A stretch of DNA of 64,000 nt from an uncultured bacterium. Lineage in GTDB: Bacteria; Patescibacteriota; Minisyncoccia; Phycocordibacterales; PALSA-1337. Below, one piece after another: positions 7,069-55,937 of this stretch. The DNA lies in NCBI GenBank assembly GCA_903872035.1, contig CAIQIZ010000009.1, positions 7,299-71,298 of the forward strand, given 5' to 3'. Both the position numbers and the translations under genes were made by a program. Numbering within the stretch: the first letter of the stretch is position 1; each line of letters begins with the position of its first letter. The notes under the pieces were generated by a model. The model was not told the origin of the DNA, made no database searches, and worked only from the letters and a program-made list of their open reading frames with translations.

Positions 7069-7214
7069 CTTGGCGGACAACATCTCCTCACCTCCTCGCA
7101 AGGTCGCCATTCCAAATTGCAGCCGTAGGCGCTTCCAAGGATTCAGCGCCTACGGGCAATTCGTTCATGGCTCAGATCACATTGCGAGTCGGCTCGAATA
7201 TGTTGTCCGCCAAG
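7069..7214 (-). repeat. extended-hairpin structured element, copy 1 (about 146 nt), begins 3 nt after stop of 7218-9515 gene
   Basis: 15-bp perfect closing stem CTTGGCGGACAACAT/ATGTTGTCCGCCAAG; interior about 90 percent identical to 55788-55937 in inverted orientation; internal 11-bp perfect hairpin CCGTAGGCGCT/AGCGCCTACGG. Confidence 0.7.
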
Positions 7215-7217
7215 CTA

Positions 7218-9515
7218 CTATTTGCCGCTCTGCACTTGCTTAATGGCCGCATCGATCTGATCTTTGAGCTCAGGATGCAACTTCTGGAGGGCTTGCAAAG
7301 TCTTGACCGCAGCTGATTTTTGACCAGACACATATTGGAGCTGGGCCAATTGTCCTTGCAGATTGATATCTGACGGGCTGCTCGAGGCCAAGTTGGTATA
7401 TATGGCGATAGCCTTGCTATATTCCTTCCTTGAAGAATAGACACTGGCCATCTGTTGCGAACCAAAGATGACTGGGTCATTACCAAAGAGCTTATGAGCT
7501 TCTGTTTCTTTGCCATCCAAAACCAAAGTGATAGCGTAGGCATTTTTGGCTTGCGCGTAATCCGGAGCAGACTCATAAGCTTGTTTCAGCAGCGCTTCGG
7601 CCTCCGCCGCTTTGCCAGAATTGATGTATGCATTCGCTAGTTCGAAATCCAACGTCTGTTTGGCCGGTGAGAGCTCATGACCCTTTTCCAAAAGTTCCAA
7701 AGCTGGAACATATTGACCGATACTGTTGTAGAAGGCTCCACCTAGAACATAAGCGCGGGCATCTTTGGGCGTAGCAGCCACCTGAGCTTGGATCTCTTTG
7801 CTGGCTAGAGTAAAGAATGCCTGCTTGGTCGGTCCGGCTACCTGCTGACTGGCAATGACGCTACCAGCACAAGACATGACTTGCTCGCGAATCTCCTGGT
7901 TAGCTAGGTAGACATTTACATTCAAAGCACTCTGAAAGGCCGCGGTGTCTAGGTTCTGACCGCCACAAGTCTGTAAAGCAGTGATGAGACGGCTATTGGC
8001 TTCGATCGGTCGGATATTGTAGAAGTAGACCGCACCGATCAAAAGAACGATCGCTATAGGTGCCACGATATATTCGACAGCATCCATTCTAGTCGGCTCT
8101 GTGCCGAACCAATTCAGAGATTGCCAGCGGGACGCACCAACATTCCCTACCGAAGGATTTGAACCGATGGGGACAGTCGCCCCGACCAAAGATTTTGTAT
8201 CTGCTTTTGGCAATGAATTCGCGAATCCCAGAGCCGCGAAGAACAAGACGTAGCTGGCCAAGTTATCGAAGACGAATACATTGTGAACAAAGTAGCCAGC
8301 GAGCAATCCTGTGAGGACGCTCTTTTCGAGGATGCCAAGCGAAGACTTCCAAACGGCCACAAGAAAAAGAACGTATAAGGCGAGATATGCCATCAATCCG
8401 ACGATTCCAGAATCGACTAACCAGTCGAGGAAGACGTTGTGAGCGCGGTCGAACCATTGCTCTTGGGCATACATGGCCGGATTGTAATCGGCATTGAATA
8501 TATAGTTGAAATTCTCTTGACCCCAACCGAACAATGGACGATGCATAGCGCCGTTTATCGCCATCGGCCAAATGAACTGGCGGGCCTGATTGGAAGCTTC
8601 ATACCAAGAAAGATTGGAGAACCTTCCGAGGATCGGGTTTGTTGTGATGGATGGATTGTGGCGATTGGCCCAAAATACCAAACCTAGGAGCACGATGAGA
8701 GCGATGATCCCTCCAGATATCCATCGTCTTTTCTTCGATTCTCCCTTGCCAAAAAATGCGTAGATGGCGCAAGCCAGCATGATACCGCCTATCAAGCCTA
8801 GGATGGTACCGCGAGTTTGAGTCTCCAAAATAATGAACCCGAAGAGCACAGCAAGAACTGCATAGACCCATTGCAAGGATCCGGCATACAGCATCTTCTT
8901 GGCGCGAGCCACGAAGAACATATAAGCCGCGATGAAACCGCTGAGCAACATGTATATGGCCATATAAGCAGAGTTACCAAGAGATGCATCCAAACGCGTC
9001 GCCCCTTGGTGAGTCGGAGTCCAACCGAGGAATTGAGCGATGCCGTATAGAGCGACGATGAAAGCGATGAGCAATGAGGCATTGAACCAACGATGCCATG
9101 ATCTTTGACCATTCTCCGTAGAGACTCCCCCGCTGCGGAGATCCATGGGACCGAAGAGGCTGGTAGTGACGATATAGAAAGCCCAGAGATGGATGATGAC
9201 GATCCAACCTTCCATGCGCTCGAAGTTAGACCAGAGGCTACGGAGCGGATTGACACCGAGAAGATCGGCGATGAGAGCGATCAGGGCAAATAGAGTCACT
9301 CCGATAGTAAGCGGTGAGATTCGTGGTCGGTATTTTGGTTCGATGAAAGCCAAAATTGCCCAGGCGGCAAAGGCTATCTCCACTAGGATCCTAAAATAAA
9401 AAGCTTTTCCAGTGATGAATGGGAAGAAAAATGAATTGGTGACGATCAGAGGAAAGATCGGGATCAGGAACAAAGCGGCAATGGCAACATACTGGGCGAT
9501 TTTTTTTATAGGCAT
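7218..9515 (-). CDS. O-antigen ligase/Wzy_C-family polytopic membrane protein with C-terminal TPR repeat domain
   Basis: about 12 predicted TM segments in N-terminal 450 aa; C-terminal about 250 aa with repeated TPR-like A-x-x-Y/L patterns (e.g. AKNAYAITLVLDGKETEAHKLF). Confidence 0.6.
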   Translation of the reverse strand: MPIKKIAQYVAIAALFLIPIFPLIVTNSFFFPFITGKAFYFRILVEIAFAAWAILAFIEPKYRPRISPLTIGVTLFALIALIADLLGVNPLRSLWSNFERMEGWIVIIHLWAFYIVTTSLFGPMDLRSGGVSTENGQRSWHRWFNASLLIAFIVALYGIAQFLGWTPTHQGATRLDASLGNSAYMAIYMLLSGFIAAYMFFVARAKKMLYAGSLQWVYAVLAVLFGFIILETQTRGTILGLIGGIMLACAIYAFFGKGESKKRRWISGGIIALIVLLGLVFWANRHNPSITTNPILGRFSNLSWYEASNQARQFIWPMAINGAMHRPLFGWGQENFNYIFNADYNPAMYAQEQWFDRAHNVFLDWLVDSGIVGLMAYLALYVLFLVAVWKSSLGILEKSVLTGLLAGYFVHNVFVFDNLASYVLFFAALGFANSLPKADTKSLVGATVPIGSNPSVGNVGASRWQSLNWFGTEPTRMDAVEYIVAPIAIVLLIGAVYFYNIRPIEANSRLITALQTCGGQNLDTAAFQSALNVNVYLANQEIREQVMSCAGSVIASQQVAGPTKQAFFTLASKEIQAQVAATPKDARAYVLGGAFYNSIGQYVPALELLEKGHELSPAKQTLDFELANAYINSGKAAEAEALLKQAYESAPDYAQAKNAYAITLVLDGKETEAHKLFGNDPVIFGSQQMASVYSSRKEYSKAIAIYTNLASSSPSDINLQGQLAQLQYVSGQKSAAVKTLQALQKLHPELKDQIDAAIKQVQSGK

Positions 9516-9588
9516 GAGAATTTCCGATAAATATTAATATAGAAAAACACTATAGCATATAAAATAAATTGTGTGTTAGTATGGCTCC

Positions 9589-10413
9589 ATGTCTCAGGTC
9601 GTCACCGTTATCAGGCCTAAAAAGATCTTTCACCTGCATGATCTCAAAGAATTATGGCAGTACCGAGAACTGCTGTACTTCTTCAGCTGGCGCGACCTCA
9701 AGGTCAGGTACAAACAGACTGCGATCGGAGCTCTGTGGGCCATCTTCCAACCATTCATCACCATGGTGGTCTTCTCCGTATTCTTCGGCGGTTTGGCCAA
9801 GATCCCATCTGACAACGTTCCCTATCCGATTTTCGTCTACGTCGGATTGCTCTTCTGGCAATTCTTTTCTGGAGCGCTTTCCGATACCAGCGATTCGTTG
9901 GTCAATAATCGGGCCATCATCACCAAAGTCTATTTTCCACGCCTCATCCTGCCGGCCTCATCCGTCGTCACCAAACTAGTCGACTTCGCCATCGCTTCAG
10001 TCATCTTGGTCGGGCTCATGTTCTACTATGGCTATGTACCGCATCTGGCTGGTCTCCTCATTTTGCCGCTTCTGCTCATCATAACTTTCATGGCAGCCAT
10101 AGGCGGCGGTCTCTTCCTGGCGGCCATAAACGTCAAGTATCGTGACATCCGCTACGCTCTGCCATTCTTCATTCAGCTCATGCTCTTCGTCACCCCAGTC
10201 ATTTACCCAGCCAGCTTGGCTGGCAAATATTCCATGCTTCTAGCCATAAACCCGATGACTGGCGTCATCCAGAATGCCCGGGCAGCGCTCCTCGGCACAA
10301 CTCCGATAAACTGGCTGCTCATCGCCCTCTCATTCGTCGCCTGTTTCATCCTCCTCCTAGTCGGCATATACGTCTTCAAGAAAGTCGAGCGCTACTTCGC
10401 TGACATACTATAA
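9589..10413 (+). CDS. wzm: ABC-2 type polysaccharide/teichoic-acid export permease
   Basis: [31 protein letters not shown] signature of Wzm/KpsM/TagG permeases; 6 TM. Confidence 0.7.
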
Positions 10414-10417
10414 AATC

Positions 10418-11695
10418 ATGGAAAAACCTATCATCGAAGTCAAGAATCTGAGCAAGAAATATCTCATCAACCATGAGCGAGGTAAATACGTGGCTCTTCG
10501 TGATGTCATCTCCGGTTATTTCCGTAATCCATTTGGCTTCATCAGATCGAAAGTCCGAGCAGCCGCCGGTCTGGAAAAAAAAGAAGAATTTTGGGCCCTA
10601 AGCGATGTTAATTTTTCCGTGAAGAAAGGCGAGGTAGTCGGCGTCATCGGACACAACGGCGCCGGCAAGTCTACCCTATTGAAGATCATCTCGCAGATCA
10701 CGCCACCATCCGATGGAGAGATCATCATCCGCGGTCGCGTCGGGTCGCTCCTCGAAGTCGGCACTGGTTTCCATCCGGAATTGTCCGGCCGCGAGAATAT
10801 TTTCTTGAATGGCGCCATCCTCGGCATGAAGAGAGTGGAGATCGCTGAAAAATTCGACCAGATCGTGGCTTTTGCTGGCATAGAGAAATTCCTGGACACA
10901 CCGGTCAAATATTATTCGAGTGGAATGTATGTGCGTCTTGCCTTCTCTGTCGCCGCCCATATGGAGCCAGACGTACTTTTGGTAGACGAAGTTCTGGCCG
11001 TCGGCGACGCCGAATTCCAAAAGAAATGCCTTGGCAAGATGGACGAGATCACCAAGAAGGAAGGCCGGACCATCCTCTTCGTCAGCCATAACTTGGCGGC
11101 CATCCGCCAACTCTGCAAAAAGACTATCGTCCTCGGCCAAGGAAAGATCGCTTTTTCCGGCGATACCGACAAAGCCATAGAATTCTATATGCGTAATGCT
11201 CCAGAACAGACCAATCACGAAGATCTATCTGACAAAAAAAGAGAGGAGCGGGCAAGAAGGAATGTTCTTTTCACTAAGATATCTTTCCATGGGGCGTCGG
11301 GAGAAACGATGAACCGCGCACAATGCGGACAACCACTGATCGTCAGCTTGGCTTACAAATCCAAGACAAATACGACTCTGGAGAATTGTCGAGCTTCCAT
11401 CTCTTTCAAGACGACTTATGACGAGCTGCTTTTCCTTTGCGCCACAGACTTGGTGAATAAAGATAGGTTCGACTTGGCTCCGGAGGGAGAAATAAAATGC
11501 CGAATAGATAGCCTGCCTCTCCCCAAAGGCCGATATATGATCTCTATATTTTTCCAGGTAAATAATCAAATCGAAGACTGGATAGAGGAAGTGGCCGTCA
11601 TCGATGTTGAGAACGGAGATTTCTTCGGAACAGGTTCGGCACAGACATACCTCGAAGGTTCGAGCGTGCTCGTAAAACATAAATGGCTCCTATGA
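10418..11695 (+). CDS. wzt: ABC transporter ATP-binding protein with C-terminal extra domain (Wzt/TagH-like)
   Basis: Walker [13 protein letters not shown] signature YSSGM, Walker B LLVDE; about 170-aa C-terminal extension beyond the NBD as in Wzt carbohydrate-binding domains. Confidence 0.7.
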
Positions 11696-12396
11696 ACCCA
11701 TTCAACCTAGCTAAAAAAGTCGTTCCATATGTGCGCACGAAGATCTATTTCTTTAAAAAGAATATGGCGCATTCGCGGCAGTATTCGGATATCGATCGAC
11801 TTAGAATTACTTTCTCAAATCACCATCCCCTGCTTCTCCATTTCGGCTGCGGACCTCGCATTCTCAAAGATTGGATCAACATCGATCTCTATAGCGATCC
11901 CGAGAAAAAGAGCTCTAAAGGAAAGGCCGTTGATCTTCCTGCAAAAGAAAGCGGGACAAAGGATGATCTGTTCTGCTTCAATATCACAGAGACGGGCTTG
12001 CCTCTTCCGGACGGATGCGTTGACGCTATCTTTCATGAAGATTTTTTTGAGCATATCGATCAAATGGAACAAGTCATTTTTCTAGCCGAGACTTTACGAG
12101 TCATGAAAAAAGGAGCGGTGCACCGGATAAATTCACCTGATCTGCTGATCTCAATGAGGGATCATTCGGATTTTTCAAAAGGAAAAGATGGTGTGTATAT
12201 CGGCGAATGGAACAATCATGGCCACAAATCAATACCGACACATTCGTATATCAAAGAAATGGCCCTCATGGTTGGCTACAAAGAAGTGCGTTTTAACAGC
12301 CGCAACCAAAGCATCTCGAATTTTATCCCGCAAGAATTCAAACCGGCCAACGACAGGCCTGAAAACGGAAATATCTTCGCAGATCTGATCAAATAA
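11692..12396 (+). CDS. SAM-dependent methyltransferase
   Basis: motif [20 protein letters not shown], acidic motif [11 protein letters not shown]; ATGA overlap with wzt stop (track start 11683 is an upstream alternative). Confidence 0.5.
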
Positions 12397-12430
12397 CCAA
12401 TAGGTGTTCAACTATTAAATCCAATCAACA

Positions 12431-13366
12431 ATGTCTATTTCATTCAAAACTCCAGTCCTCTTGCTCATCTTCAACAGGCCCGTACCAACGGCAAAAGTTT
12501 TTTCCGAGATCAGGAAAGCTAGACCAGAAAAGCTATTCATCGCAGCCGATGGACCGCGCCCTGACAGGCCCGATGATATCGAGAATTGCCGACTCGCCCG
12601 GGCAGCCGTGTCAAATGTCGACTGGCCCTGTGAAGTGAAAACGCTCTTTCAGGAAAAGAATCACGGCTGCAAGATCGGAGCCACGACTGGAATAACCTGG
12701 TTCTTCGATAATGTCGAAGAAGGCATGATCATCGAAGATGACTGTCTCCCTGATCCATCGTTCTTCCCTTTTTGTGAACAATTGCTAGAAAAATTCAGAT
12801 ACACCGAAAATGTCTGCATGATCTCCGGATATAACGGCAGTTCATCGACGCTCACTCCTTATTCGTATTTCTACTCGCGCTATGGTCATCTCTGGGGATG
12901 GGCTTCGTGGAGACGAATCTGGAAACAATATGACGTGACGATGAAAGTCTGGGCTTCGAAAGCCAACCGGAGAAAGATCAAACGAGAGATCAATGACAAG
13001 AATAATTGGGACTACCGCCAATGGCTCTACCAGGAAACTTTCGAAGGCCGGAAAGATACTTGGGATTACCAATGGGAAACATATCGCCTCTTTCATCGCC
13101 AGTACTCGATAATCCCTGAAAAAAACTTGATCGAAAATCTCGGCTTTGGACCTGACGCTACGCATACCAAACGGTCCACATCCTATCTCATAAAAAAACG
13201 AGAGGCTCTGCAATTCCCATTGATCCACAATACCGAAAAAATTGCTCCCCTAGATGCGTATGACAAACAACTGGGCCCTCTAACACCGGCATATAGCATG
13301 CGTGTGCGAAAGATCCGCCAAGTTGTGAAGAGAATCCTCAAAACGTTCGGGTTAGTACGCGCTTGA
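12431..13366 (+). CDS. putative nucleotide-sugar-dependent glycosyltransferase (GT-A-like)
   Basis: N-terminal LLIFNRPVPTAKVF...AADGPR pattern resembling GT2-like 'HlpA-like' proteins; DDC acidic motif; weak. Confidence 0.3.
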   Translation: MSISFKTPVLLLIFNRPVPTAKVFSEIRKARPEKLFIAADGPRPDRPDDIENCRLARAAVSNVDWPCEVKTLFQEKNHGCKIGATTGITWFFDNVEEGMIIEDDCLPDPSFFPFCEQLLEKFRYTENVCMISGYNGSSSTLTPYSYFYSRYGHLWGWASWRRIWKQYDVTMKVWASKANRRKIKREINDKNNWDYRQWLYQETFEGRKDTWDYQWETYRLFHRQYSIIPEKNLIENLGFGPDATHTKRSTSYLIKKREALQFPLIHNTEKIAPLDAYDKQLGPLTPAYSMRVRKIRQVVKRILKTFGLVRA

Positions 13367-42335: not shown

Positions 42336-43493
42336 TCACTTGCTAAATATCGGCAGATCATTAAAAGTGATCTTGTTCGTTCGTTGTTTGTCCACAAATA
42401 CCTTGGCCCGTTTCAGCATAGCATCTCTTTCCTGACTTGGCGTCAAACAGAATTTCACTCGCTCACTGAAACCAGCTTGACTATCCCCATCGTGCCAGAT
42501 GCGGCCACGATCACCATCGTTTCCTATGGTTTCGACGATGCCATCAGCTTCGCTACCTATGACCGGCACATCCATATGCATAGCCTCCCAAAAGACCAGA
42601 CCTAGCGCTTCAGCTTTGGAAAGCAGCACGAATAAGTCTGCATCAGCATAATAGTTCCAAATCTCATCGCGGTGTATGAATCCAGGAAATATCAATCTAT
42701 CTTGGATTCCCAATGATTTGGCTTGTCGATTTAGCGGCTCCAGGAGACTTCCCCGGCCTAGGGCGATCAAGACATAACCCGAACCTAATCCCGCGAACAG
42801 CTCCAGTAACTTAGGATAATTCTTTTCTGATTCGAGACGTGCAACAGTCAAGATCACTTTCTGGTTTGGAGCGATCGCGTGTTTAGTTCGTATCACACCT
42901 TTCTTGGCCTTTGTAATAAATTCCAAGTCGCGGTCGATCGTATTCACATAAAAGACTGTTATATACTTTTCCGGAATGCCGATGTTCTTCAGATACGTCT
43001 TCATATTCTCATTTATCGTAAAGAAATGGTCGGCCAAGCGCCACCAGAGCTTTTCTGTCGCCCATGAATAGAATCCCTTGATCGCCCCAAATCTCCTTGT
43101 CTGCGAATACACTCGCGGCTGATTGCTTACACAAAGGACGATCTTGCCGCCAAAGATAAGTTTGGCCAACCAAAGAGCCGGCAACATACCAAAGTCATAA
43201 GTCATCCAGGCATCCGGTTTGAGCTTGAACCTCTTCACGGTGAATGGGACCGAAATCAGAGTCAGAAGATCGAGCACCGGCTTCAAAGAATAGAGCCTGG
43301 TCTTTTTGTGAATCGTTTTGAATCGACCTTCGAGACTCACATATGAGACGTTGGCCCAAGAAAAGAAGAAGAAATCATTCATGGACGGATTCAACTGGTC
43401 GCGTTCCAATTTATCTTTGAGCTCGACGAATGAGGTGCGAAAGATATCGCGCCAGTCATAATTGATCATGAATATGGAGAGTGTTCGGATCAT
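42336..43493 (-). CDS. GT4 (GT-B) glycosyltransferase
   Basis: LSKAEALGLVFWEAMHMDVPVIGSEADGIVE E-x7-E region. Confidence 0.65.
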   Translation of the reverse strand: MIRTLSIFMINYDWRDIFRTSFVELKDKLERDQLNPSMNDFFFFSWANVSYVSLEGRFKTIHKKTRLYSLKPVLDLLTLISVPFTVKRFKLKPDAWMTYDFGMLPALWLAKLIFGGKIVLCVSNQPRVYSQTRRFGAIKGFYSWATEKLWWRLADHFFTINENMKTYLKNIGIPEKYITVFYVNTIDRDLEFITKAKKGVIRTKHAIAPNQKVILTVARLESEKNYPKLLELFAGLGSGYVLIALGRGSLLEPLNRQAKSLGIQDRLIFPGFIHRDEIWNYYADADLFVLLSKAEALGLVFWEAMHMDVPVIGSEADGIVETIGNDGDRGRIWHDGDSQAGFSERVKFCLTPSQERDAMLKRAKVFVDKQRTNKITFNDLPIFSK

Positions 43494-44638
43494 TGAAGTT
43501 TTGCGGTCGGGGGGTCCTTCCTGGAGAGCGCCGAGGACGGGTAGCCAGCGATCAGCGCCCGCAGGCGGCGGAAGGAAGGACCCCCCGACCGCATCTCTTC
43601 GGCTAGTCGCGTGCCAAGCATCGATAAACTATGATTATCCTGGACGAATTTTCTAACAGAAAGCGCACGAGCACGTCGGTCATCAATAGATAATTCCAAT
43701 AGAGACCTTATCTTTGCTGTCAATTCACTAACATCGTCTTCTTTAAATAAATAAGCGGAATCTATCTTACCAATGAGATTCTTATTGCAAGAGAGAGCCA
43801 AAGCGCCACAGGCCATGGCTTCAAATATTGTCTTGTCGAACATTCCGCTCGGACTCAAGTTGACAAATATCTCATGAGCGGAAAAAATGGCGGGTAGCTC
43901 ACTGTTCGGCACGCCGGCTTTGAAGGTAACGCGCTCATCTATATGTAGATCGGCAGTTCGTCGCTCCAACGATTCAAAATACCCGACGTCTTGTGACGAC
44001 ACATTTCCTATGAATAAAACACTGAAATCTATTCCTTCCTTCTTCAATATGCCTAAGGCTTCGATCAGTTGATCCAGTTTCTTTGACGGTGAAATACGTC
44101 CGACGGACAGGATCGAGTGAGGTATCCGAACTGTTTCTGGTCGAAAATTGAATATTTCCGTATCGACCCCGACCGGCATGAAGACAGTATTCTTGAATTT
44201 GGCTGTGTATGAAAACTTTGAGGTACAAAAAACTTTGGTACAAAAGAAAGCTGCCATATCCGTCAGAAAACTCCCAGCGTAATGGTTACGCCACATGTAG
44301 ACTGGCTTGCCCATAATTTTCCAGAGCGGACCGCCCAAGATCGCGTACTCCTGATTCTGATGGACGAAGACCACATCATAATCCTTTCGAAGCGTTAAAG
44401 CGTATTTAAAAAATCTGTACACATATTTCACTCGTGACACACCCACCTCCTTGCCCAAGGAAAACACTTCAACATTCGCTGGCAAATCATGAGTACCCTC
44501 GTAAAGACAGACCACCTTAACCGTCTCGAAATGCTTGGCCAATTCCGTTATCCAAAGATGGAAGAAGCTAAGGACACTATCACGAAGATCTACTTTTTGA
44601 GCAAAGATAAGGAGTTTCATATTATTTGGAGGTGGCAC
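43490..44638 (-). CDS. GT4 (GT-B) glycosyltransferase (C-terminal about 35 aa encoded by the palindrome)
   Basis: GT-B N- and C-domains; ORF reads through 43502-43593 palindrome giving tail SGGPSFRRLRALIAGYPSS; alternative ATG at 44620. Confidence 0.55.
   Translation of the reverse strand: MPPPNNMKLLIFAQKVDLRDSVLSFFHLWITELAKHFETVKVVCLYEGTHDLPANVEVFSLGKEVGVSRVKYVYRFFKYALTLRKDYDVVFVHQNQEYAILGGPLWKIMGKPVYMWRNHYAGSFLTDMAAFFCTKVFCTSKFSYTAKFKNTVFMPVGVDTEIFNFRPETVRIPHSILSVGRISPSKKLDQLIEALGILKKEGIDFSVLFIGNVSSQDVGYFESLERRTADLHIDERVTFKAGVPNSELPAIFSAHEIFVNLSPSGMFDKTIFEAMACGALALSCNKNLIGKIDSAYLFKEDDVSELTAKIRSLLELSIDDRRARALSVRKFVQDNHSLSMLGTRLAEEMRSGGPSFRRLRALIAGYPSSALSRKDPPTAKLQ
43502..43593. repeat. GC-rich perfect 20-bp inverted repeat with about 52-nt spacer, inside 3' end of GT4 ORF
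   Basis: TGCGGTCGGGGGGTCCTTCC ... GGAAGGACCCCCCGACCGCA; both strands remain open through it. Confidence 0.7.
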
Positions 44639-45776: not shown

Positions 45777-46810
45777 GCCTTTTTTGATCTCCAAACCTTG
45801 ACGATCTCGCCAGCTATCTCTTCCCAAGTGTGGACGAATGAGAACTTCGCGACTTTGGCAGCTTGAGCGGCACGATTCCGTGGATCAGCCAACCAAAGGA
45901 TCTTCTCGGTCATATCGTTCTCATCTTCTGGATCGACAAAGATCGCGCATTCTTTGACCCGATCGGCGATCCCTGTCTCCTTAGTCAAGATAAATGGTGT
46001 GCCGACTCGGATAGCATCGAAGATCATATTGGGGCTGATATCGCCCAATGAAGCCAAGATGACCGCGTAGGAATGATGGATCTTTTCTAGGAAGCTGTCG
46101 TAGATCGCTTTTCCGCAATCAAGGTCTATATCAGGTAAGTTTTTGGACCGCAATCCCTTCTCGGCCGATTCGAAGGACTTCTTCAGACGTTCGATGTTTT
46201 TCCATTTGAGTGTCCGCGTCCCTGCCACGAATGACCGGTTTTCTGGTTCGATCGAAGGTAATCTTGGTCCACAGAAATTCTCGACGATGGCATTCCTTCT
46301 CGGATCAAGCTTGTAAGCCTTCTCGAATATCCTCCTCTGCCAATCAGTGCTGAAAATTATGGCCGATGCCCTTCGCAAAGCTTTACCACCCCAGCGATAG
46401 ATCAGTCTTTCCCTAAATGAAAGATTGCTTAATTTGGTGTCGATCACTTTCTGGTAAAAATCCTTGAACAAGACGAGCTCTCCCGTCCGCTCGATGTAAG
46501 TTTCCCAAAGACGGTCGCCACCTGTGCGGATGATATATTTCTTCCGAAGAAGCGCGCAAGCGATCATGGTGGGCACTGCTGCATTCCAAGTATCGAGAAC
46601 CAATACCAAATCTGCCTTCCAAGCTTTGCGGAAAACTTTGGTCAAATACAACAAATTGCTCAAAGGTGATGGCACTGCCCTTTCCCATCGGTAGGCTGCC
46701 ACTTTTACCTCATGACCCTGTTTCTTCCAGGTCTCATAAAGGTTGCGGGCGTACTGGGCGGGACCGCCGATATCGGGAGGATATATGCCAGATGCGATCA
46801 AAATTTTCAT
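45773..46810 (-). CDS. GT-B fold glycosyltransferase-like (GT4-related)
   Basis: MKILIASGIYPPDIGGPAQYARNL N-terminus typical of GT4 N-domain; divergent C-domain. Confidence 0.45.
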   Translation of the reverse strand: MKILIASGIYPPDIGGPAQYARNLYETWKKQGHEVKVAAYRWERAVPSPLSNLLYLTKVFRKAWKADLVLVLDTWNAAVPTMIACALLRKKYIIRTGGDRLWETYIERTGELVLFKDFYQKVIDTKLSNLSFRERLIYRWGGKALRRASAIIFSTDWQRRIFEKAYKLDPRRNAIVENFCGPRLPSIEPENRSFVAGTRTLKWKNIERLKKSFESAEKGLRSKNLPDIDLDCGKAIYDSFLEKIHHSYAVILASLGDISPNMIFDAIRVGTPFILTKETGIADRVKECAIFVDPEDENDMTEKILWLADPRNRAAQAAKVAKFSFVHTWEEIAGEIVKVWRSKKA

Positions 46811-46853
46811 ACGAATCAGTCTACCACAAACATGAATTTGGAGTTAGGAAAAC

Positions 46854-46942
46854 GATCTTGGTGGAAAAAGCCTCCTCGCCTTCCAATCGAAAAACGGATC
46901 GACCAGCCTTCGACTCATTCGAATACTTTTTCCACCAAGATC
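46854..46942 (-). repeat. short member of the extended-hairpin element family; overlaps last codons of 46915-48162
   Basis: 17-bp perfect stem GATCTTGGTGGAAAAAG/CTTTTTCCACCAAGATC; loop begins ATTCGA and ends GGCGAGGAGG like copies at 7069 and 55788; closing-stem consensus cTyGGyGGAmAA shared. Confidence 0.5.
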
Positions 46943-48162
46943 TCCTGCATCTTCTTAGCTATCATGATCCATTGGTACTTCTCGCGGATCATTTTGGAGG
47001 CATTCTTAATGATGTAATCTCGTGATTCCTTGTCCTTGATCAATTTTTCGACTTTCTGAGCGATCGAGCGAGGATTGCCGACTTCGCAAAAAAGTCCGGT
47101 CTCGCCATCTTTCAAGAAATCAGGTATGCCGCCAACCGGAGTGGCGATGATAGGAAGTCCAGCCGCCATAGCTTCGAGAAAAGAAACTCCCAAACCTTCC
47201 GACAATGACGGTCTGACGAATATATCCGAGATCTGCAAATACGGCGGCATGTCTTTGTGCGAGATGAAGCCTAGGAATTGCACACGGTCAATTACTTTCA
47301 CATTATTCTTGCAAGTCGATTCTCCATTATTCAAGCCGAGTTCGATCGCTAGTTCCCTCAACTTCCCTTCTTCATGTCCTTGACCGAGGATGAGCAATTT
47401 GATATTCGCCGGCAAGTACTTCAAAGATTCTATGATATCGCCGACGGCATTCTTCTCTACCAAGCGCGAAGTCGTCACCAGAAAGACGTCGTTTTCTTTC
47501 TTGCCAAGTTTCGACTTCAGATCGACGGCCTCTTGGCTAGAGATCGGCTTTGAGAACAATTCAAGATCTACAGCATTGGGTACGACTGTCACCGGACATT
47601 TGGCACCCATATTCTTAGCCCAATCAGCCAGATAATTTGAAATGGTCTGGATATGGTCGGCTTTGGTGAAGATCATCTTGAAGAGCGGATACAAGGGCAA
47701 TGCACGACGCTTCAAGTAAGAGATGGGGTCACCGTCTTGCAAAGTAAGCAGATAAGGTATCTTCGGATGCATCAGCTTGAAAAGCACCGCCGCGAAGGAA
47801 CTGTAATTGGCCATGATCGACCAGATCGCATCGTATTTCCGCTTTCGATTCAAGCTGATGGCTTTCGATAGGCCAGTCAATAAATATGCGTATTTATTTA
47901 AATTTAAGTAGAATGGCAGCGAGTCTGTCGAGAACTTCTTTGACGTCGACCAACCGATGCGGTAAATATTCACATTGCCGATCTTTTCGTATTTTGGTAA
48001 GCGCGAATCGAGACACAAAGTGATCATGTCAAATTCGATATCGCCCGGAGCGATCCGGTCAGTGATCTCTTTGATAGCGACTTCAGCCCCGCCGATGAAA
48101 CGAGGGTAATAGGCGAAGGAGAAAATCAGCACATGAGGCTTATTCAACGGAGTGATCATCAT
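46915..48162 (-). CDS. GT4 (GT-B) glycosyltransferase
   Basis: FVRPSLSEGLGVSFLEAMAAGLPIIATPVGGIPDFL. Confidence 0.7.
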   Translation of the reverse strand: MMITPLNKPHVLIFSFAYYPRFIGGAEVAIKEITDRIAPGDIEFDMITLCLDSRLPKYEKIGNVNIYRIGWSTSKKFSTDSLPFYLNLNKYAYLLTGLSKAISLNRKRKYDAIWSIMANYSSFAAVLFKLMHPKIPYLLTLQDGDPISYLKRRALPLYPLFKMIFTKADHIQTISNYLADWAKNMGAKCPVTVVPNAVDLELFSKPISSQEAVDLKSKLGKKENDVFLVTTSRLVEKNAVGDIIESLKYLPANIKLLILGQGHEEGKLRELAIELGLNNGESTCKNNVKVIDRVQFLGFISHKDMPPYLQISDIFVRPSLSEGLGVSFLEAMAAGLPIIATPVGGIPDFLKDGETGLFCEVGNPRSIAQKVEKLIKDKESRDYIIKNASKMIREKYQWIMIAKKMQEILVEKVFE

Positions 48163-50159: not shown

Positions 50160-50200
50160 ATAAAAAGAGACCCCTCGCCGCTAAGGTGCGACGAGGGGTG
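50160..50200 (-). terminator. rho-independent terminator (minus strand)
   Basis: minus strand CCCCUCGUCGC-accuua-GCGGCGAGGGG then UCUCUUUUUAU. Confidence 0.55.
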
Positions 50201-50620
50201 AGGAGACCTGAAATTGGTTAAGCGAACAGCAGGCCTCTGGGACTAAAGGCGGTCGATTCCCTCCGCAGAGGAGGTACAGGAGGGCGCAATTTCCTTTCAA
50301 CCTTATCACGGAGCGCCCGCTCATCTTGAAAGTACACGTTCGGCTGAGAAAGGAAAGCGAGTGCTCTCCCAACTTCATCCGAGTCCGTAAGTTTAACGCG
50401 TTGACGTGTATCCTCCTCACCTTCTTTAGGTGGAATTCCGACCGGTATCCGAGTAATTACTCGAGCCATAGGTATTACTTCTCTGTCGTTTCTTGCCTGT
50501 ACAAGCCTATCTGAAAAGAGGAACCGATAACTGATACTAAAGGAGCAGGCGAATACAGATCTTTGGTTGTTTCGCTCCGGAAATAAATGATACCACGAAT
50601 CTAAAGTAAAGCAAGTAGCT
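50200..50620 (-). ncRNA. candidate structured ncRNA of unknown class (GC-rich, hairpin-dense, terminator-capped intergenic region)
   Basis: about 430 nt between two minus-strand genes with only short ORFs; perfect 14-nt palindrome CGAGTAATTACTCG, AACGCGTT, T-loop-like GGTCGATTCC on plus strand; own terminator at 50160-50200. Confidence 0.3.
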
Positions 50621-50625
50621 GTGGA

Positions 50626-51882
50626 TTACTTCAGCAAAAGCGCCTTTGGATCATAGACGCTTGCCGCGTCCCAGAGCATCCAACTAGTCAGTCCGGAATC
50701 ATTGGTGGCTTTGATCTGCTCACGGATCATAGCTGGCGTGTATTTAGCGCCGAGGTCGAAGGATTGCAGCCATGGCCGTAGCTTATTCTTGTCATAGACA
50801 GTCTTTGTGTATAGTTGCGGCGACGTCGAAGCGATAGGTTCCAAACCTTGAGACTTGTCACGAGTAGTCGTGGCTTCGGCTTTGGCAATGGCTTTATCCA
50901 TAGAATACTTTACGACTTCATAAGGATGCTCCGCCGGTTTGGTGTAACCGAGAAAGCCATGCGCAAAATGGGATGGATATACCATCGGGGCGACATAGTC
51001 GAAATATGGCAAAGCATCGAGGAGGCTTTGGCCGATACCGAGATCATCTTCGGAACTGGTAGTCAGCCCAAAGAAATCAGCTGAAAGAGGGATGCTCGTA
51101 GAAGCAAACTTTTCGCGCAAATAGAGGAAAAACGAGCGCATGACTTCTTCTCTATTGCGGCCGTCGCTCCAGACATAAGAAATGTCCTTCATGTTCCCAT
51201 CAGAAGGATAACGGATGTAATCAAAGTTTAACTCGTCGAAACCATCAGCATAAGCTTCATTGCCGATAGACACCAAATAATCCCAAACTGGCTGGGCTCC
51301 AGCATCCAACCATTTGACTCCTTTGTAATCAGCCCAAACGCCCCCTTCTTTGGTCTTGACCGCCCATTCTGGGTGGAGATTTACCAGAAACGTATCTTGA
51401 AATGAAGAGATACGTCCGATGACATAGACACCCTTGTCATGCAATCCCTTTATGTACTCCTTTATGTCGGGGATGCGTTTTTCTGCCGACCCGATCGCTT
51501 GCAGCGCAGGATCGTCCACGGGAAAACTGATCCGTCCAGTATAGTCTTTTATATCGATAATCACCGCGTTTATCTCCGTCGATGTGACAAGGTTGTCAAG
51601 CTCGCTTCTAAATTTCTTGTTGCCAGCTGCCCAACTGGTCATGTAGACGGCCTTGAGCGGATCCGGGGTCGCAAGGTGGTAGACCACTATGCTCGATGTC
51701 GCAACTGCTCGGCTCAGGTCTGCCGGCGACGTCGTCGCGATCTCGACAACTTCGACCTTGTAAGTGGTATGACTGGAAAACAAAGTGAGTGAAGCGACGA
51801 CGCAAAGCACGATGATAATACAAGCGCCGACCAATATAGCCATGATACGCGTTGCTCCAATATCCTGCCACCGGTTACTCAT
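50626..51882 (-). CDS. putative glycoside-hydrolase-like TIM-barrel protein (GHL/DUF4015-type), N-terminal TM anchor
   Basis: TM helix then INAVIIDIKDYTGRISFPVDDP...GVYVIGRISSFQD...FDELNFDYIRYPSDG pattern typical of this family. Confidence 0.45.
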   Translation of the reverse strand: MSNRWQDIGATRIMAILVGACIIIVLCVVASLTLFSSHTTYKVEVVEIATTSPADLSRAVATSSIVVYHLATPDPLKAVYMTSWAAGNKKFRSELDNLVTSTEINAVIIDIKDYTGRISFPVDDPALQAIGSAEKRIPDIKEYIKGLHDKGVYVIGRISSFQDTFLVNLHPEWAVKTKEGGVWADYKGVKWLDAGAQPVWDYLVSIGNEAYADGFDELNFDYIRYPSDGNMKDISYVWSDGRNREEVMRSFFLYLREKFASTSIPLSADFFGLTTSSEDDLGIGQSLLDALPYFDYVAPMVYPSHFAHGFLGYTKPAEHPYEVVKYSMDKAIAKAEATTTRDKSQGLEPIASTSPQLYTKTVYDKNKLRPWLQSFDLGAKYTPAMIREQIKATNDSGLTSWMLWDAASVYDPKALLLK

Positions 51883-52157
51883 TTTTGCTCCGGAGGATTT
51901 TGGTTGGTAATGGTTGATGCTGTTGAAGAGGTTGGGGCCGTTTTTTGTTCGGTCGTAACTGGGGCCGACTTGTGCTCGCTAAAAGGAACGTCTGCAGATT
52001 TCACTGGTTTGACTTTTGGCGCGAAAGAATAAGCTATGAGAGCCACGACGATACCACAAAAGACCGCCCAAAATTTCTGGAATCCCAGCGGGAAGCCGAG
52101 GAACGGGACGATGGCGACCAATACGCCGATGATCATTAATACCTGACGTTTGGACAT
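51879..52157 (-). CDS. small membrane protein (2 TM)
   Basis: start set at ATG MSKRQVLMIIGVLVAIVPFLGF; track ORF extends upstream with alternative start. Confidence 0.3.
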   Translation of the reverse strand: MSKRQVLMIIGVLVAIVPFLGFPLGFQKFWAVFCGIVVALIAYSFAPKVKPVKSADVPFSEHKSAPVTTEQKTAPTSSTASTITNQNPPEQK

Positions 52158-52176
52158 GATGTTCACATTGTAGCAG

Positions 52177-52674
52177 ATGATATATGCGCTTGCGAATATG
52201 GCGCGAGATGATAGGATAGCGCCAGAAAGCAAACGTATGAACGCACGTCCCGAACCGCTCCTTCCGGAGCACTTCCGACCACGCAATGAGAGCAAGCCTG
52301 TCGCCTGGCTCCATATCGGCAACCATCGGTTCATCGGGTTTCTACAGAGGATCTGGAAAGACCATGACAATGAACGTATCTACCGGGTTGAGATCAATCC
52401 CCGAGCAGAGATCATATATGTACCATCGTCACCGCCGACCTCTGACAAAGATGCCTGGTTCGGAAAAGACGATGAGATACAGATCTTAAACAGGGACTCT
52501 GATATGCAACCATTCGCTATTGTAAATCATCGTCCCATCGCACAAAACAGATCTCCGGAAACTATCATCATCCGCTTCGGGGAAGACGGCATGCTAGAAA
52601 TTTCGAAGCGTAAAAAAGACATCGCCTCCGTAACTTCCCTCCTGGGAAACGGCTGTGACGATTCAACTGACTAA
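52177..52674 (+). CDS. hypothetical protein
   Basis: ORF track only. Confidence 0.25.
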   Translation: MIYALANMARDDRIAPESKRMNARPEPLLPEHFRPRNESKPVAWLHIGNHRFIGFLQRIWKDHDNERIYRVEINPRAEIIYVPSSPPTSDKDAWFGKDDEIQILNRDSDMQPFAIVNHRPIAQNRSPETIIIRFGEDGMLEISKRKKDIASVTSLLGNGCDDSTD

Positions 52675-52786
52675 TCTTGGCTCGGAAACTCCTTCCGCGC
52701 CATTTTATTCTGACGAGCGAGGACGTGTGACTGCGAAGCAGGCACAACGTCCGAGTCGAAGTCAGAACACAGGGGTTCAATACCCT

Positions 52787-53548
52787 TTATTTATCCGAGA
52801 CTATGACCACGAATTCTCCTCTGACTTTATCGGGATGTGAATTGAAATAATCCAACACTTCTTTGGGAGTGCCGCTGACCACTTCTTCGAATATCTTGGT
52901 CAATTCGCGACAGACCGTGACTCGCTTCGTGAAGGTGTTCCCGCTTTGTCGCTGGCCCACAGCGCCCAAATCGGGAATACCTTCCCGAAGCTTTTCCCCT
53001 TCCTCCTTGCCTAGGACCTCCAATGTCTTCATGATCCTATGCGGCGATTCGTAGAAGACGACTGTACGTTCCGAGTCGGCGATCTCTTTGAATAAGGTCT
53101 GCCTACCCTTCTTGTGCGGCAAGAATCCAAGAAATATGAAGTCTGCACATGGGACACCTGCAATAGAGAGAGCGGCTGTCAAAGCTGAGGGACCAGGAAT
53201 AGCTTCAATTTTTATCGTACCTGCCGCGATCTCTGTCATCAATGATTCGCGTATATGTCTTACCAATTCAGAACCTGGATCCGAAATCCCCGGAGTCCCA
53301 GCATCAGAGACCAATGCGATATTCTTTCCTTCTTTGAGCAATTGGATCACTTCCTCTGTCCGAGAAAGTTTACTGTGAGCATGATATGAAAGCGTGCGAG
53401 AAGCGATGCTGTGGCGAGAGAATAGCTTCTTGGTGACGCGAGTATCTTCGCAAAGCACCAGATCTGACTTCTTCAAAGTCTCCAGCGCCCGGAGCGTGAT
53501 ATCTTCAAGATTTCCTATAGGGGTGGCTATGACGGATAAAGTTGACAT
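52787..53548 (-). CDS. rsmI: 16S rRNA (cytidine1402-2'-O)-methyltransferase
   Basis: IATPIGNLEDIT, LCEDTRVTKKLF tetrapyrrole-methylase-fold RsmI signatures. Confidence 0.8.
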   Translation of the reverse strand: MSTLSVIATPIGNLEDITLRALETLKKSDLVLCEDTRVTKKLFSRHSIASRTLSYHAHSKLSRTEEVIQLLKEGKNIALVSDAGTPGISDPGSELVRHIRESLMTEIAAGTIKIEAIPGPSALTAALSIAGVPCADFIFLGFLPHKKGRQTLFKEIADSERTVVFYESPHRIMKTLEVLGKEEGEKLREGIPDLGAVGQRQSGNTFTKRVTVCRELTKIFEEVVSGTPKEVLDYFNSHPDKVRGEFVVIVSDK

Positions 53549-53578
53549 GGCGCCACATTAGCACAATTTCAAGGCGGC

Positions 53579-53630
53579 GGAAATGTTTTCGTTTGAGCGC
53601 TGTGGGCCAGCGGCAAACGAAAACATTTCC
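53579..53630. promoter_or_regulatory. 17-bp perfect inverted repeat (18-nt spacer) in rsmI / ATP-grasp divergent intergenic region
   Basis: GGAAATGTTTTCGTTTG ... CAAACGAAAACATTTCC; spacer itself palindromic (CGCTG..CAGCG). Confidence 0.6.
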
Positions 53631-53691
53631 AGAGCCTGAAAATCCATACATACCATTGACCAATAATCGTTATATCTATAGACTGTATTTT

Positions 53692-54930
53692 ATGTCATCA
53701 AACACTACTAAAATCATATATGTCAGCCGAGAGATAGAAAGAGCCTTGGGCACAGCTCCGAGCCAGAATTATCATATAGTTTCCAACCTGACTCCTTACG
53801 GACAAGCCGTCAAGGATCAGTATCCTGATTTCGTCACATTGATAAAGAGCGGCGACACCGACCTTCTCGGAACTACCGACCTTTTGAACCATCCGGAGAC
53901 GTCGAAATTGATCAGCGATGATTCGCGTCTATTGGTATTCAAGAACACCCTGCGAGTCGAGACTGCCGCCAAAGAGAACCATTGGCAGCTTTTGAATCCA
54001 GCAGCCGCTGTCTCAGAAAGAGTCGAGAATAAGCTTTCTCAAGTCCGCTGGCTTGGGACCGTCGGTCAAAAATATCTCCCCTCCCACGCTGTCAAAGTCG
54101 CCAAATTCATCACTTGGAAAGGAGATTCTCCTTTCATAATCCAATGGGCTCACGGCCACACTGGCGATGGAACCATCCTTATCAAAACTGCAGAAGATCT
54201 GCGCGCCCTCCAAGAAAAGTTTCCGGAACGCATGGCCCGCATAACTGGCTTCGTCGATGGACCATCATTTACAGTGAACGTTGTCGTCACTCCAGAACGT
54301 ATCCTCATGGGCAATGTCAGTTACCAGATCACTGGCCTTCAACCATTCACAGACAATGAGTTCAGCACCATAGGCAACGATTGGGGCGCCGCCAAGAAGA
54401 TCCTTTCAACGAGCGACATGCAAACGATCCAAGCCATCACCGCTGAGATTGGACAAAAGATGCAAGCTGACGGCTGGAAAGGCCTGTTCGGCATCGATTT
54501 CATCCGCGAAGAAAAAAGCCAACGTATCTATCTCATAGAAGTAAACGCCCGCCAGCCAGCCTCCTCGACGTTCGAATCATTCTTGCAAGAAGAAGCTCGG
54601 GCTAAAGGAGTCCGTGGATTGACCACTTTTGAAGCTCATATCCGCGCCTTGCTCGGCCTACCCATGGACCAAGACCTGATCGCCATAGATGACGGTGCCC
54701 AGATCATTCAGCGCGTCACCAAGAATGTCCAGAGCATATTCGATGATGCCGGGAAAGAGCTACGCAAGAAAGGCTACACGGTACTCACCTACCAAAACAG
54801 CGCACCAAATTCCGACCTGCTCCGCATCCAATCACCGACCGGCATTTTGGAAAGTCATCGTGTCTTCAATATTAAAGGTAAAGAGATCGCCGAAGCTATC
54901 AAATGCTCGCATTTCAAGATCGAGGTGTAG
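53692..54930 (+). CDS. ATP-grasp superfamily ligase
   Basis: start set at MSSNTTK (track ORF begins inside rsmI); GLFGIDFIREEKSQRIYLIEVNARQP ATP-grasp C-domain motif. Confidence 0.55.
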   Translation: MSSNTTKIIYVSREIERALGTAPSQNYHIVSNLTPYGQAVKDQYPDFVTLIKSGDTDLLGTTDLLNHPETSKLISDDSRLLVFKNTLRVETAAKENHWQLLNPAAAVSERVENKLSQVRWLGTVGQKYLPSHAVKVAKFITWKGDSPFIIQWAHGHTGDGTILIKTAEDLRALQEKFPERMARITGFVDGPSFTVNVVVTPERILMGNVSYQITGLQPFTDNEFSTIGNDWGAAKKILSTSDMQTIQAITAEIGQKMQADGWKGLFGIDFIREEKSQRIYLIEVNARQPASSTFESFLQEEARAKGVRGLTTFEAHIRALLGLPMDQDLIAIDDGAQIIQRVTKNVQSIFDDAGKELRKKGYTVLTYQNSAPNSDLLRIQSPTGILESHRVFNIKGKEIAEAIKCSHFKIEV

Positions 54931-54967
54931 GGCAAAGTAGCGGAATATTTTCGGAGACCATGAAACG

Positions 54968-55789
54968 TTGCTGATTTTGCGTTACAATAGAACATCACTT
55001 ATGCCCACAGCCACACTCGGAATCAAAGCCCTTTCGATCATCGATCAATACGTCCACTTCAAGTTCGGATCGGCTGTCTGCTCTGTTCCCTATTTCAATA
55101 ACAAGACCGTCGGAGCCAGGGCGGCTCTGCGGGCGACCATAGGCAAAGGCAATCCGAAAGATATCCTGGACGAGGTTCAATCGATCGCCGTAAAGTCTCA
55201 CTTTGATCCAAAAACATTGACTGATGAATCTTTGAAGAAATTTCTAGTAGATCACAATCTTGGCATCGAGTGTTCCGGTTTCGCCTATTACATTTTGAAC
55301 GCTGAATCGGAAGAGCGTGGCAAAGGCGCTTTAGATAAACATCTCCACTTCACCAAAGCTGGAGGCTTTTTCGGAATGGTCCGCACCAGATTACGTCCTG
55401 TTGAGAATTGCGCTGTCGCCACTTTCGCCGACGATAAAAATAGTTCAGCCATTTCACTTAATGACACGCAACCAGGAGACATCATTACCATGCTAAACGA
55501 TGGTAATGAATCTGAGCACGACCATATTTTGATTGTGACCGAAATTGAATTTGAAAATTCCCAATCAAGTTCCAAGCCGACTAAAATCCATTACGCCCAC
55601 GCTGTCGCATATCCAGAAGACGGCCTTCTTGGAACCGGCGTGAAGCAGGGGGTCATTGAAATCAGCGCTGATTCAAATTCAATCACTGATGGTCTCTGGT
55701 CAGAAAATGGATCAACTACAAAAGCTGAACGAATCTTTAATCGCGCAAAGAAATCAAAAACAGAGATCAGAAGATTGAGGTGGTTTTGA
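54968..55789 (+). CDS. hypothetical protein, possible papain-like Cys/His hydrolase
   Basis: candidate catalytic C in IECSGFAYYIL and H in HDHILIVTE about 90 aa apart; weak. Confidence 0.3.
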   Translation: MLILRYNRTSLMPTATLGIKALSIIDQYVHFKFGSAVCSVPYFNNKTVGARAALRATIGKGNPKDILDEVQSIAVKSHFDPKTLTDESLKKFLVDHNLGIECSGFAYYILNAESEERGKGALDKHLHFTKAGGFFGMVRTRLRPVENCAVATFADDKNSSAISLNDTQPGDIITMLNDGNESEHDHILIVTEIEFENSQSSSKPTKIHYAHAVAYPEDGLLGTGVKQGVIEISADSNSITDGLWSENGSTTKAERIFNRAKKSKTEIRRLRWF

Positions 55790-55937
55790 GCTCGGTGGAA
55801 ATGTCTACGAGCCGATTCGCAATGCGATTTGAGCCATGAACAAATTGCCCGTATGAGCTGAATCCCTGGAAGCGCATACGGCTGCAATTTGGAATGGCGA
55901 CCTTGCGAGGAGACGAGGAGACATTTCCATCGAGCTC
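55788..55937 (+). repeat. extended-hairpin structured element, copy 2 (about 150 nt), starts within stop codon of 54968-55789 and lies 42 nt upstream of mraY
   Basis: 18-bp closing stem GAGCTCGGTGGAAATGTC/GACATTTCCATCGAGCTC (one G-U); interior matches reverse complement of 7069-7214. Confidence 0.7.

Follow-up and report, generated by a model that had tools for sequence, protein, structure and literature searches.

We analyzed a 64,000-nt stretch of genomic DNA (hereafter, the window) from an uncultured bacterium of the Patescibacteria, or candidate phyla radiation (CPR), which is present in many metagenomes and whose MraY and O-antigen ligase have homologues annotated as Patescibacteria, Paceibacterota, Parcubacteria, or Taylorbacteria. 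At the ends of 3 genes, an O-antigen ligase/TPR gene, a GT4 glycosyltransferase (GT) gene, and a hypothetical gene upstream of mraY, the window carries 3 hairpins that are copies of one hairpin-shaped repeat family of ~150 nt. A first-pass annotation, prepared from the sequence alone, had drawn attention to these hairpins; here, we describe their structure, their presence and absence in related genomes, and their probable nature. The features are as follows.

7068-7215, minus strand: copy 1, a full-length 148-nt hairpin element directly 3′ of the O-antigen ligase/TPR gene (7218-9515, minus strand)
7098-7185, minus strand: core "X" of copy 1, 88 nt (GCAATGTGATCTGAGCCATGAAC...GGAATGGCGACCTTGC), conserved by alignment, pair counts, and regional divergence
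55787-55938, plus strand: copy 2, a full-length 152-nt hairpin
55819-55906, plus strand: core "X" of copy 2, 88 nt, conserved
46854-46942, minus strand: copy 3, an 89-nt internally shortened relative inside the 3′ end of the GT4 gene (46915-48162, minus strand)
46816-46827, minus strand: relic of the former end of the GT4 gene (C-terminal codons and stop, GTGGTAGAC TGA), noncoding at present and lying downstream of copy 3

Three related hairpins at gene ends

A repeat search identified 7083-7196 and 55808-55921 as arms of 114 nt with 91% complementarity, so that copies 1 and 2 are inverted relative to each other, in agreement with the roughly 10 mismatches over 114 positions counted in the first-pass annotation. 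Each of the 2 copies is, on its own, a nearly continuous hairpin. The closing stems differ in sequence and pair perfectly, as had been described, over 16 bp in copy 1 (GCTTGGCGGACAACAT/ATGTTGTCCGCCAAGC), 18-19 bp in copy 2 (with one G-U pair), and 17 bp in copy 3 (GATCTTGGTGGAAAAAG). The RNA folding energies of copies 1, 2, and 3 are -89.3, -72.6, and -43.1 kcal/mol, corresponding to z-scores of -12.7, -8.4, and -5.5, respectively, when compared with dinucleotide shuffles. The core of copy 1 includes an 11-bp apical stem and an 11-nt loop (TGAATCCTTGG); the compensatory change from G-C to U-A reported for this stem between copies 1 and 2 is real and is accompanied by one A.G mismatch in copy 2. 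Copy 1, which scored 155.9 bits with a covariance model (R1), is found with identical sequence in 3 metagenome contigs, and copy 2 (159.6 bits) has an identical copy in 2 near-identical strains (L040 and L049).

Copy 3 belongs to the same family by virtue of its ends, as previously suggested. The motif CTYGGYGGAMA, corresponding to the closing-stem consensus of the first-pass annotation, has 7 exact matches in the window, 6 of which are arms of the 3 hairpins, and 25 matches when up to one mismatch is allowed (6.9 expected). Over the basal arms of ~32 nt, copy 3 agrees with copies 1 and 2 at 23/33 positions, a value equal to that between copies 1 and 2 and reached by 0/500 shuffles. Its interior holds only a remnant of the core (TTGGAAGGCGAGGAGG against TTGGAATGGCGACCTTGCGAGGAGG in copies 1 and 2). 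Because copy 3 shares the basal arms but only a core remnant, we consider it an internally shortened derivative; with most of its core gone, it was not detected by covariance model R1.

The first-pass annotation placed the start of all 3 copies 0-3 nt from the stop codon of the upstream gene. This holds for copy 1, which follows the TAG stop of the ligase gene (7218-7220) and a second TAG (7215-7217). In copy 2, the first 3 nt are themselves the native TGA stop (55787-55789) of the hypothetical gene (54968-55789), so that the stem includes the stop codon. For copy 3 the claim fails, as the stop (TGA, 46915-46917) lies 25 nt inside the element: the arm contributes this stop along with the 8 final codons of the GT4 gene, which specify a new C-terminus (ILVEKVFE), and the relic of the original gene end follows downstream, before the next GT gene, whose ATG is at 46810.

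Copy 2 ends 50 nt upstream of the likely mraY start (ATG 55989) and 41 nt from a GTG at 55980; the first-pass annotation had given 42 nt. The GAGGAG motifs in its interior, which had been read as Shine–Dalgarno-like and suggestive of a leader, are paired in the hairpin and lie at least 50 nt from the mraY ATG, and the element is absent before mraY in relatives (see below); such a role was rejected. Similarly, the small terminator proposed to follow copy 1 amounts to a weak, 7-bp AT-rich hairpin with a T-run, which was not called in the terminator scan. The sequence directly after the stem is CCTGTTG in copy 1 and TACAAAAC in copy 2, without a U-tail; neither copy displays the GC-rich stem with a directly adjoining U-run that characterizes rho-independent terminators. 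A small hairpin motif (GTAAATGCTNNCATTTAC) occurs at ~6990-7010 (minus strand) and at ~8955-8975 of contig L004, in both cases near element copies, in 2 organisms.

Architecture, covariation, and distribution of the family

Using core k-mers, we identified relatives of the element in a JGI contig (L004), in a Paceibacterota metagenome-assembled genome (MAG) containing 3 copies (L011/L017, L014/L018, and L021), in a MAG labelled Saccharibacteria containing 4 copies (L015, L016, L019, and L022), and in the short metagenome contigs L012 and L013; the assignments to Paceibacterota and Saccharibacteria are the MAG labels as given. Copies range from 89 to 155 nt in length. Alignment of 9 copies revealed 3 layers, namely, a basal stem of ~30 bp, an 88-nt core reading GCAATGYGATYTGAGCCATGAACAAATTGCCCGTA ... 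TACGGYTGCAATTTGGAATGGCGACCTTGC, and, within the core, an 11-bp apical stem closed by the loop TGAAKCCTTGG. RNAalifold predicted 51 pairs for the 9 copies, with compensatory double changes in 25. On this fixed structure, 95.5% of the cells are paired, compared to 84.7% in shuffles and 36-42% with slid partners, and the 25 double-change pairs compare to 11.2 in shuffles (0/500 reach 25) and 4-9 when slid. The covariation claimed for the window copies is therefore borne out by a larger set and lies far beyond both the shuffled and the slid controls. The same strand of the element folds better, by 6-16 kcal/mol, in 9/9 tested copies, which supports the single favored strand proposed in the first-pass annotation; the ratio of G-U to A-C cells is about 13 to 3.

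The basal arms diverge by 13-64% and the apex by 10-30%, while the rest of the core differs by 0-10%, the apparent conservation of the core being inflated by the exact 19-20-nt core k-mers with which the relatives were retrieved. Each relative was selected by only one k-mer, and the region of the other k-mer is conserved as well; a comparison of copies 1 and 2, which is free of this bias, shows the same unevenness, at 3/51 versus 16/65 differences (p = 0.01). The basal stem evolves rapidly between copies, with the arms remaining complementary. Within Paceibacterota, the arms are partly conserved (consensus AGCTYGGYGRAAA), and they are homologous among copies 1, 2, and 3 and those of L004, L011, L014, and L021. 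The core, in turn, is nearly invariant even between the Paceibacterota and Saccharibacteria MAGs, and the Saccharibacteria copies carry it within unrelated outer stems. In L016 and L019, the apical stem is extended by ~170 nt and ends in the same loop motif. By inspection, an invariant 5-bp GCCAU/AUGGC helix appears bracketed on both sides by tandem G.A pairs (UGA-GCCAU-GAA over GA-AUGGC-GA), and its basal side looks k-turn-like. There is no conserved open reading frame (ORF), and stop positions vary between copies. A coding role was considered and rejected, given that ORFs starting at the ATG in GCCATGAAC range from 6 to >40 codons and have nonconserved stops and that substitutions track stem pairing rather than codons.

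The genomic context was readable for 11 copies, of which 10 lie no more than about 30 nt from a stop codon; copies 1 and 2 and the L018 copy abut or overlap the stop, and copy 3 contains it. Eight of the 11 are in sense orientation, and 3 (L004, L014/L018, and L021) are antisense to both flanking genes. The host genes have no function in common and include those for O-antigen ligase and GT4, as well as mraY-adjacent, murC-like, ndk, secY-adk, pgk, rpe-tkt, grpE, and typA loci. The apparent copy number is low, about 2-3 per 75 kb. T-runs follow the L011 and L014 copies, and copies of this type may terminate transcription.

The Rfam search recommended in the first-pass annotation returned no family, either for the whole window at the gathering threshold or for copy 2 at E ≤ 10, and only chance-level matches for the L016 copy. 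No tRNA or tmRNA was detected in the window, and covariance model R1 found no copies beyond the seeded ones in ~540 kb of examined loci. In IMG/VR viral contigs, 2 core k-mers yielded chance matches to the k-mer only, and blastn searches against GenBank phages and PLSDB plasmids produced no match. We did not find the element described in the literature when searching by topic and by sequence string, and the ~150-nt hairpin repeat is apparently undescribed so far.

One contig with an unusual arrangement is L012 (coverage 1.3), in which the 3′ end of pgk is joined to adk across a short element copy. In the Saccharibacteria MAG, pgk (L019, where the sequence ends inside the copy) and secY-adk (L016) occupy distinct loci and have long copies, the Adk identity being 98% (regions compared: the whole of L012, L016 4990-5480, and L019 1-330). 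L012 may have arisen by rearrangement through the repeat or may be a chimera of the L019 and L016 loci created during assembly.

Filled and empty sites among relatives

Comparison with syntenic loci showed that close relatives differ in whether they carry the element at a given orthologous site. The copy 2 site is empty in 5 contigs from 3 relatives (L037/L038/L039, L047, and L048) with MraY proteins 83-90% identical to that of the window; here, 22-27 nt separate the stop of the hypothetical gene from mraY. In the window, L040, and L049, that very stop marks the start of the element. L041 (85%) and L011, which is syntenic with the 49-60 kb region of the window at 65-75% nucleotide identity, have a different palindrome of ~180-195 nt in the same short spacer.

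The copy 3 site is polarized by its coding context. The intact GT4 orthologue in L037/L038 ends in ...GCAGGAG GTCCTAATTATGCTAGACTGA TTCGCATG (GTC CTA ATT ATG CTA GAC TGA), with an overlap between it and the gene that follows. In the GT4 gene of the window, GCAGGAG is followed by copy 3, and the old codons with their stop (GTGGTAGAC TGA) persist downstream, before the next ATG. Since the old stop is kept downstream and the orthologue is intact, the direction of change at this site is insertion into a coding end. The element can thus replace the C-terminus of a gene together with its stop codon.

The copy 1 site is empty in L043 (ligase 76% identical), with conserved sequence anchoring both sides: 38 nt separate the ligase stop from a conserved block (6937-6865 in the window), compared to the element plus ~130 nt in the window. 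In L045 (ligase 71% identical), a different hairpin of ~115 nt lies 9 nt after the ligase stop. The conserved block itself, ~75 nt in length (ATGAGTACCCAGTGTGGGCACTCTCCAAGAAATGTCTCACAAAGCAGCCCCTCGGGCTGTTTTGCG; window 6865-6937, minus strand; L043 ~12320-12395), is maintained 3′ of the ligase gene and ends with a GC hairpin and a T-run; it has no Rfam or tRNA match and is a candidate small RNA or micro-ORF. A reciprocal case is provided by L011, where an element copy lies between a murC-like gene and a small convergent gene; this junction holds an unrelated 80-nt hairpin in the window and gaps of 1-32 nt in other relatives.

No direct repeat longer than 1-2 nt flanks copies 1, 2, or 3 when compared with the empty sites. 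The element enters without target-site duplication, at stop codons or within about 25 nt of them, and the flanking genes stay in place where it is absent. Both orientations with respect to the host genes occur, and in every tested copy the better fold belongs to the same element strand. The synteny comparison at stop codons, suggested in the first-pass annotation, uncovered presence and absence at all 3 sites, a pattern that speaks for turnover and not for a gene-specific RNA. We also considered whether the closing stems are preexisting host terminator hairpins. For the window copies this was rejected, as the empty copy 2 and copy 3 sites have no hairpin and the arms are homologous across copies; for the Saccharibacteria copies, insertion of the core into preexisting hairpins is possible.

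Several other hairpins and repeats were observed in the same loci. A second family (family B) comprises hairpins of 160-210 nt at 63570-63727 of the window, L011 5673-5848 and 11315-11525, L041 1250-1430, and L016 777-936. Its members have a core in common (GGACTGTCTGAGCG ... GGAGCGAGTT); their closing stems, perfectly paired over 17-37 bp, show no relationship from copy to copy. Family B co-occurs with the element in the Paceibacterota and Saccharibacteria MAGs and fills the copy 2 site in L041 and L011. In the search for target-site duplications, a 7-bp direct repeat (CAATTAC) was seen to flank only the window copy of family B, which is unrelated to the element. A third family, with AACTTTCTAACTT/AAGTTAGAAAGTT units in a hairpin of ~80 nt, is found at 57808-57837 and 59267-59347 of the window, where it covers the stops of 2 genes (ends at 57817 and 59291), and at 2986-3064 of L004; the copy at 59267-59347 occupies the junction where L011 carries the element studied here. 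A hairpin of 106 nt (43495-43600), whose GC-rich stem pairs perfectly over 21 bp, lies in frame within the last ~36 codons of a GT gene (43490-44638, minus strand), beyond its Pfam domain, the ORF stop overlapping the next ATG (ATGA); it looks like another insertion extending a C-terminus. In a divergent intergenic region, a 78-nt hairpin (53566-53643) has a stem (GGCGGCGGAAATGT) resembling the basal stem of the element, and its apex (53592-53617) has a 92% identical inverted copy at 52945-52970, inside the gene 52787-53548. Finally, polypurine/polypyrimidine tracts, (GGAGGAA)n/(CTCCTTC)n, at 60507-60536, 60907-60959, and 62684-62765 flank two 120-aa ORFs (60540-60902 and 62313-62675) located on either side of a MurD-like gene; judging from the gene order in L049, one of these ORFs appears to carry PF05635 (23S_rRNA_IVP).

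Nature of the element

We interpret the copies as a non-autonomous, hairpin-shaped mobile DNA repeat specific to Patescibacteria, comparable to REPINs and ERIC sequences, whose fold serves its own propagation (probability roughly 0.68). Turnover at orthologous sites, the polarity of the copy 3 site, antisense copies that keep the favored strand, spread across CPR lineages beside unrelated genes, and dispensability in close relatives together argue that the hairpin serves the element and not the neighboring gene; any effect on mRNA would be secondary. Of the roles considered in the first-pass annotation, which included a recombination or transposition substrate, transposition is the one that fits.

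Under the mobile-repeat interpretation, copying of the element would depend on a trans-acting enzyme whose gene lies at another locus and which would recognize the invariant core on a single-stranded hairpin, either as single-stranded DNA, as do HUH transposases of the IS200/IS605-RAYT type, or as an RNA intermediate. Selection for propagation would then keep the stems paired and generate the "compensatory" pattern, and intrastrand template switching that corrects quasi-palindromes may contribute. The concentration at stop codons could reflect survival of those insertions that spare the downstream promoter and ribosome-binding site in very compact genomes and/or a preference (microhomology) tied to the TRA-GCT terminus of the element. 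Once inserted, the element would be co-transcribed as a duplex of ~70 bp and might take on a secondary role as 3′ barrier, RNase III site, or terminator.

A number of observations weigh against this interpretation. Neither a transposase nor an autonomous partner was found in the window, which contains only glycan-synthesis and cell-wall genes, and a tblastn search of 544 kb of examined loci returned no match, the IS200 TnpA query being approximate and the test accordingly weak. A conserved center with variable ends is the reverse of what is seen in both REPINs and MITEs (miniature inverted-repeat transposable elements). Insertion and excision are read from filled versus empty sites rather than from an event seen directly, and deletion in the relatives could in principle also explain the empty copy 1 and copy 2 sites. 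The analysis comprises only ~12 copies in total, with the k-mer-inflated core conservation noted above. Moreover, extreme conservation of the core across CPR and the tandem G.A and k-turn-like loops also fit a functional RNA.

It is possible, though not likely, that the invariant core, with its helix between tandem G.A pairs and its conserved 11-nt loop, is a strand-specific structured module bound by a CPR-conserved protein. Such a module could define a new hairpin-directed, gene-end mobilization system that leaves no target-site duplication or could constitute a mobile RNA "cassette," that is, a protein-binding or processing signal carried to whatever mRNA receives the element. Family B hairpins have the same design and would make the module, if it exists, a general CPR phenomenon.

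A functional cis-acting RNA, such as a 3′-UTR stabilizer, an RNase III site or terminator, or an mraY leader, maintained for its effect on the host mRNA, is in our view unlikely. The strong covariation, the invariant core with conserved internal loops, and the G-U pairs favoring one strand are all expected of such an RNA, and 8/11 copies are sense to the upstream gene, including 4/4 in the Saccharibacteria MAG, where they reside inside housekeeping operons; the terminator-like T-runs after the L011 and L014 copies point in the same direction, and the occupation of the same junctions by different hairpin families might reflect a need for a hairpin at these positions. However, close relatives get by without a hairpin at each of the 3 window sites and at the murC-like/convergent junction with its gaps of 1-32 nt, the 3 antisense copies keep the same favored strand, the host genes share no function, copy 3 disrupts a coding end, and copies 1 and 2 have no U-tail directly after the stem, with no terminator called at copy 1. 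The gene-specific roles put forward in the first-pass annotation, a 3′-UTR stabilizer and an mraY leader, are not upheld, given the empty sites, the other hairpin families at the same sites in further relatives, the antisense copies, and the copy 3 insertion. Its broader argument, that conserved interior and covarying stems indicate a functional RNA rather than a MITE, survives in that the element, having no target-site duplication, is not a textbook MITE; the inference from covariation against mobility and for a gene-specific role is not supported. Compensatory changes are common in the mobile REPIN hairpins (PMC3116915).

Derivation of the element by deletion from an insertion sequence (IS) with a DDE transposase, followed by cut-and-paste movement via terminal inverted repeats, as in a classical MITE, is still more doubtful. 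Such an origin would account for a small, noncoding, multicopy element with presence/absence polymorphism, for basal arms that act as terminal inverted repeats with the shared consensus AGCTYGGYGRAAA, and for copy 3, which retains the ends and has lost the interior. Conserved terminal repeats with target-site duplications had been named in advance as the signature of a MITE; the arms are indeed partly conserved between copies, but the duplications are missing at all 3 window sites when compared with the empty ones. In addition, the Saccharibacteria copies combine the same core with unrelated ends, and the 544 kb of examined loci yielded no IS whose ends match. The lack of a target-site duplication and the least-conserved ends thus set the element apart from MITEs, whereas its conserved center reverses the REPIN pattern, making it new among hairpin repeats.

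Site-specific recombination at a folded site that marks gene cassettes, as in integron attC sites, is largely refuted: the hairpin size, the placement exactly at the upstream stop codon, the strand-specific fold, and stems more conserved in structure than in sequence are attC-like, but direct reading of the 3 copies shows no RYYYAAC/GTTRRRY (R''/R') core sites in the arms, the center rather than the ends is conserved, the copies are dispersed in both orientations beside noncassette housekeeping genes without cassette behavior, flanking genes remain in place where the element is missing, and the window encodes no integrase.

Seen as a mobile repeat, the element shares several features with REPINs. 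REP-RAYT systems depend on a cognate RAYT, a Y1 HUH transposase encoded by a single-copy gene in the genome and usually flanked by the repeats. Like REPINs, the element is a long extragenic hairpin (~100-150 nt) that an imperfect inverted repeat gives rise to, is non-autonomous, resides near gene ends, lacks a target-site duplication, and maintains pairing through compensatory changes; a strand-specific single-strand fold is plausible as the recognized form. Unlike REPINs, in which the ends (the REPs) are conserved and the spacer is variable, the element diverges by 0-10% in the center and by 13-64% at the ends. No RAYT was found in the window, and the copy number appears low. Furthermore, REPIN-RAYT systems are mainly inherited vertically within a lineage, whereas the core of the element is common to different CPR lineages.

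ERIC, Correia, and RPE repeats are co-transcribed hairpins with effects on mRNA and, in some cases, fusions to ORFs (PMC2229807). ERIC sequences vary in presence between relatives, in orientation, and in size (PMC2229807), and have TA termini and a target-site duplication (PMC2229807 Table 1). The element resembles ERIC/IRU repeats as an imperfect palindrome of ~127-150 nt, probably co-transcribed, in either orientation, present or absent at intergenic sites, and with indel size variants (L016, with its additional 170 nt, and copy 3), but it has no sequence similarity to them, no TA termini or TA duplication, and occurs in another phylum. Correia repeats are transcribed into long duplexes and processed, and RPEs fuse in frame to ORFs (PMC2229807). 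The element has no sequence similarity to Correia/NEMIS repeats, in which conserved terminal inverted repeats of 24 bp are accompanied by a TA duplication. As with RPEs, a hairpin repeat in a reduced genome adds a peptide, here the new 8-residue C-terminus and stop provided by copy 3; RPEs, however, lie in frame inside genes without ending them, whereas the element terminates the ORF.

The repeat described here, found in MAGs labelled Paceibacterota and Saccharibacteria, shows rapid turnover at gene ends, where it replaces stop codons and C-termini. Genomes of CPR bacteria are ~1 Mb in size, densely packed, and generally held to be repeat-poor. In practical terms, the repeat breaks assemblies, as in L019, which ends inside a copy, and L012, which links pgk to adk across one, and it can mislead gene callers on C-termini. 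For RNA discovery, it cautions that strong covariation and a strand-biased fold are insufficient, on their own, to establish a host-beneficial RNA. More broadly, the repeat offers a handle on unrecognized mobilization machinery in uncultured CPR bacteria, on horizontal exchange between CPR lineages, and on the evolution of gene 3′ ends and operon junctions in streamlined genomes.

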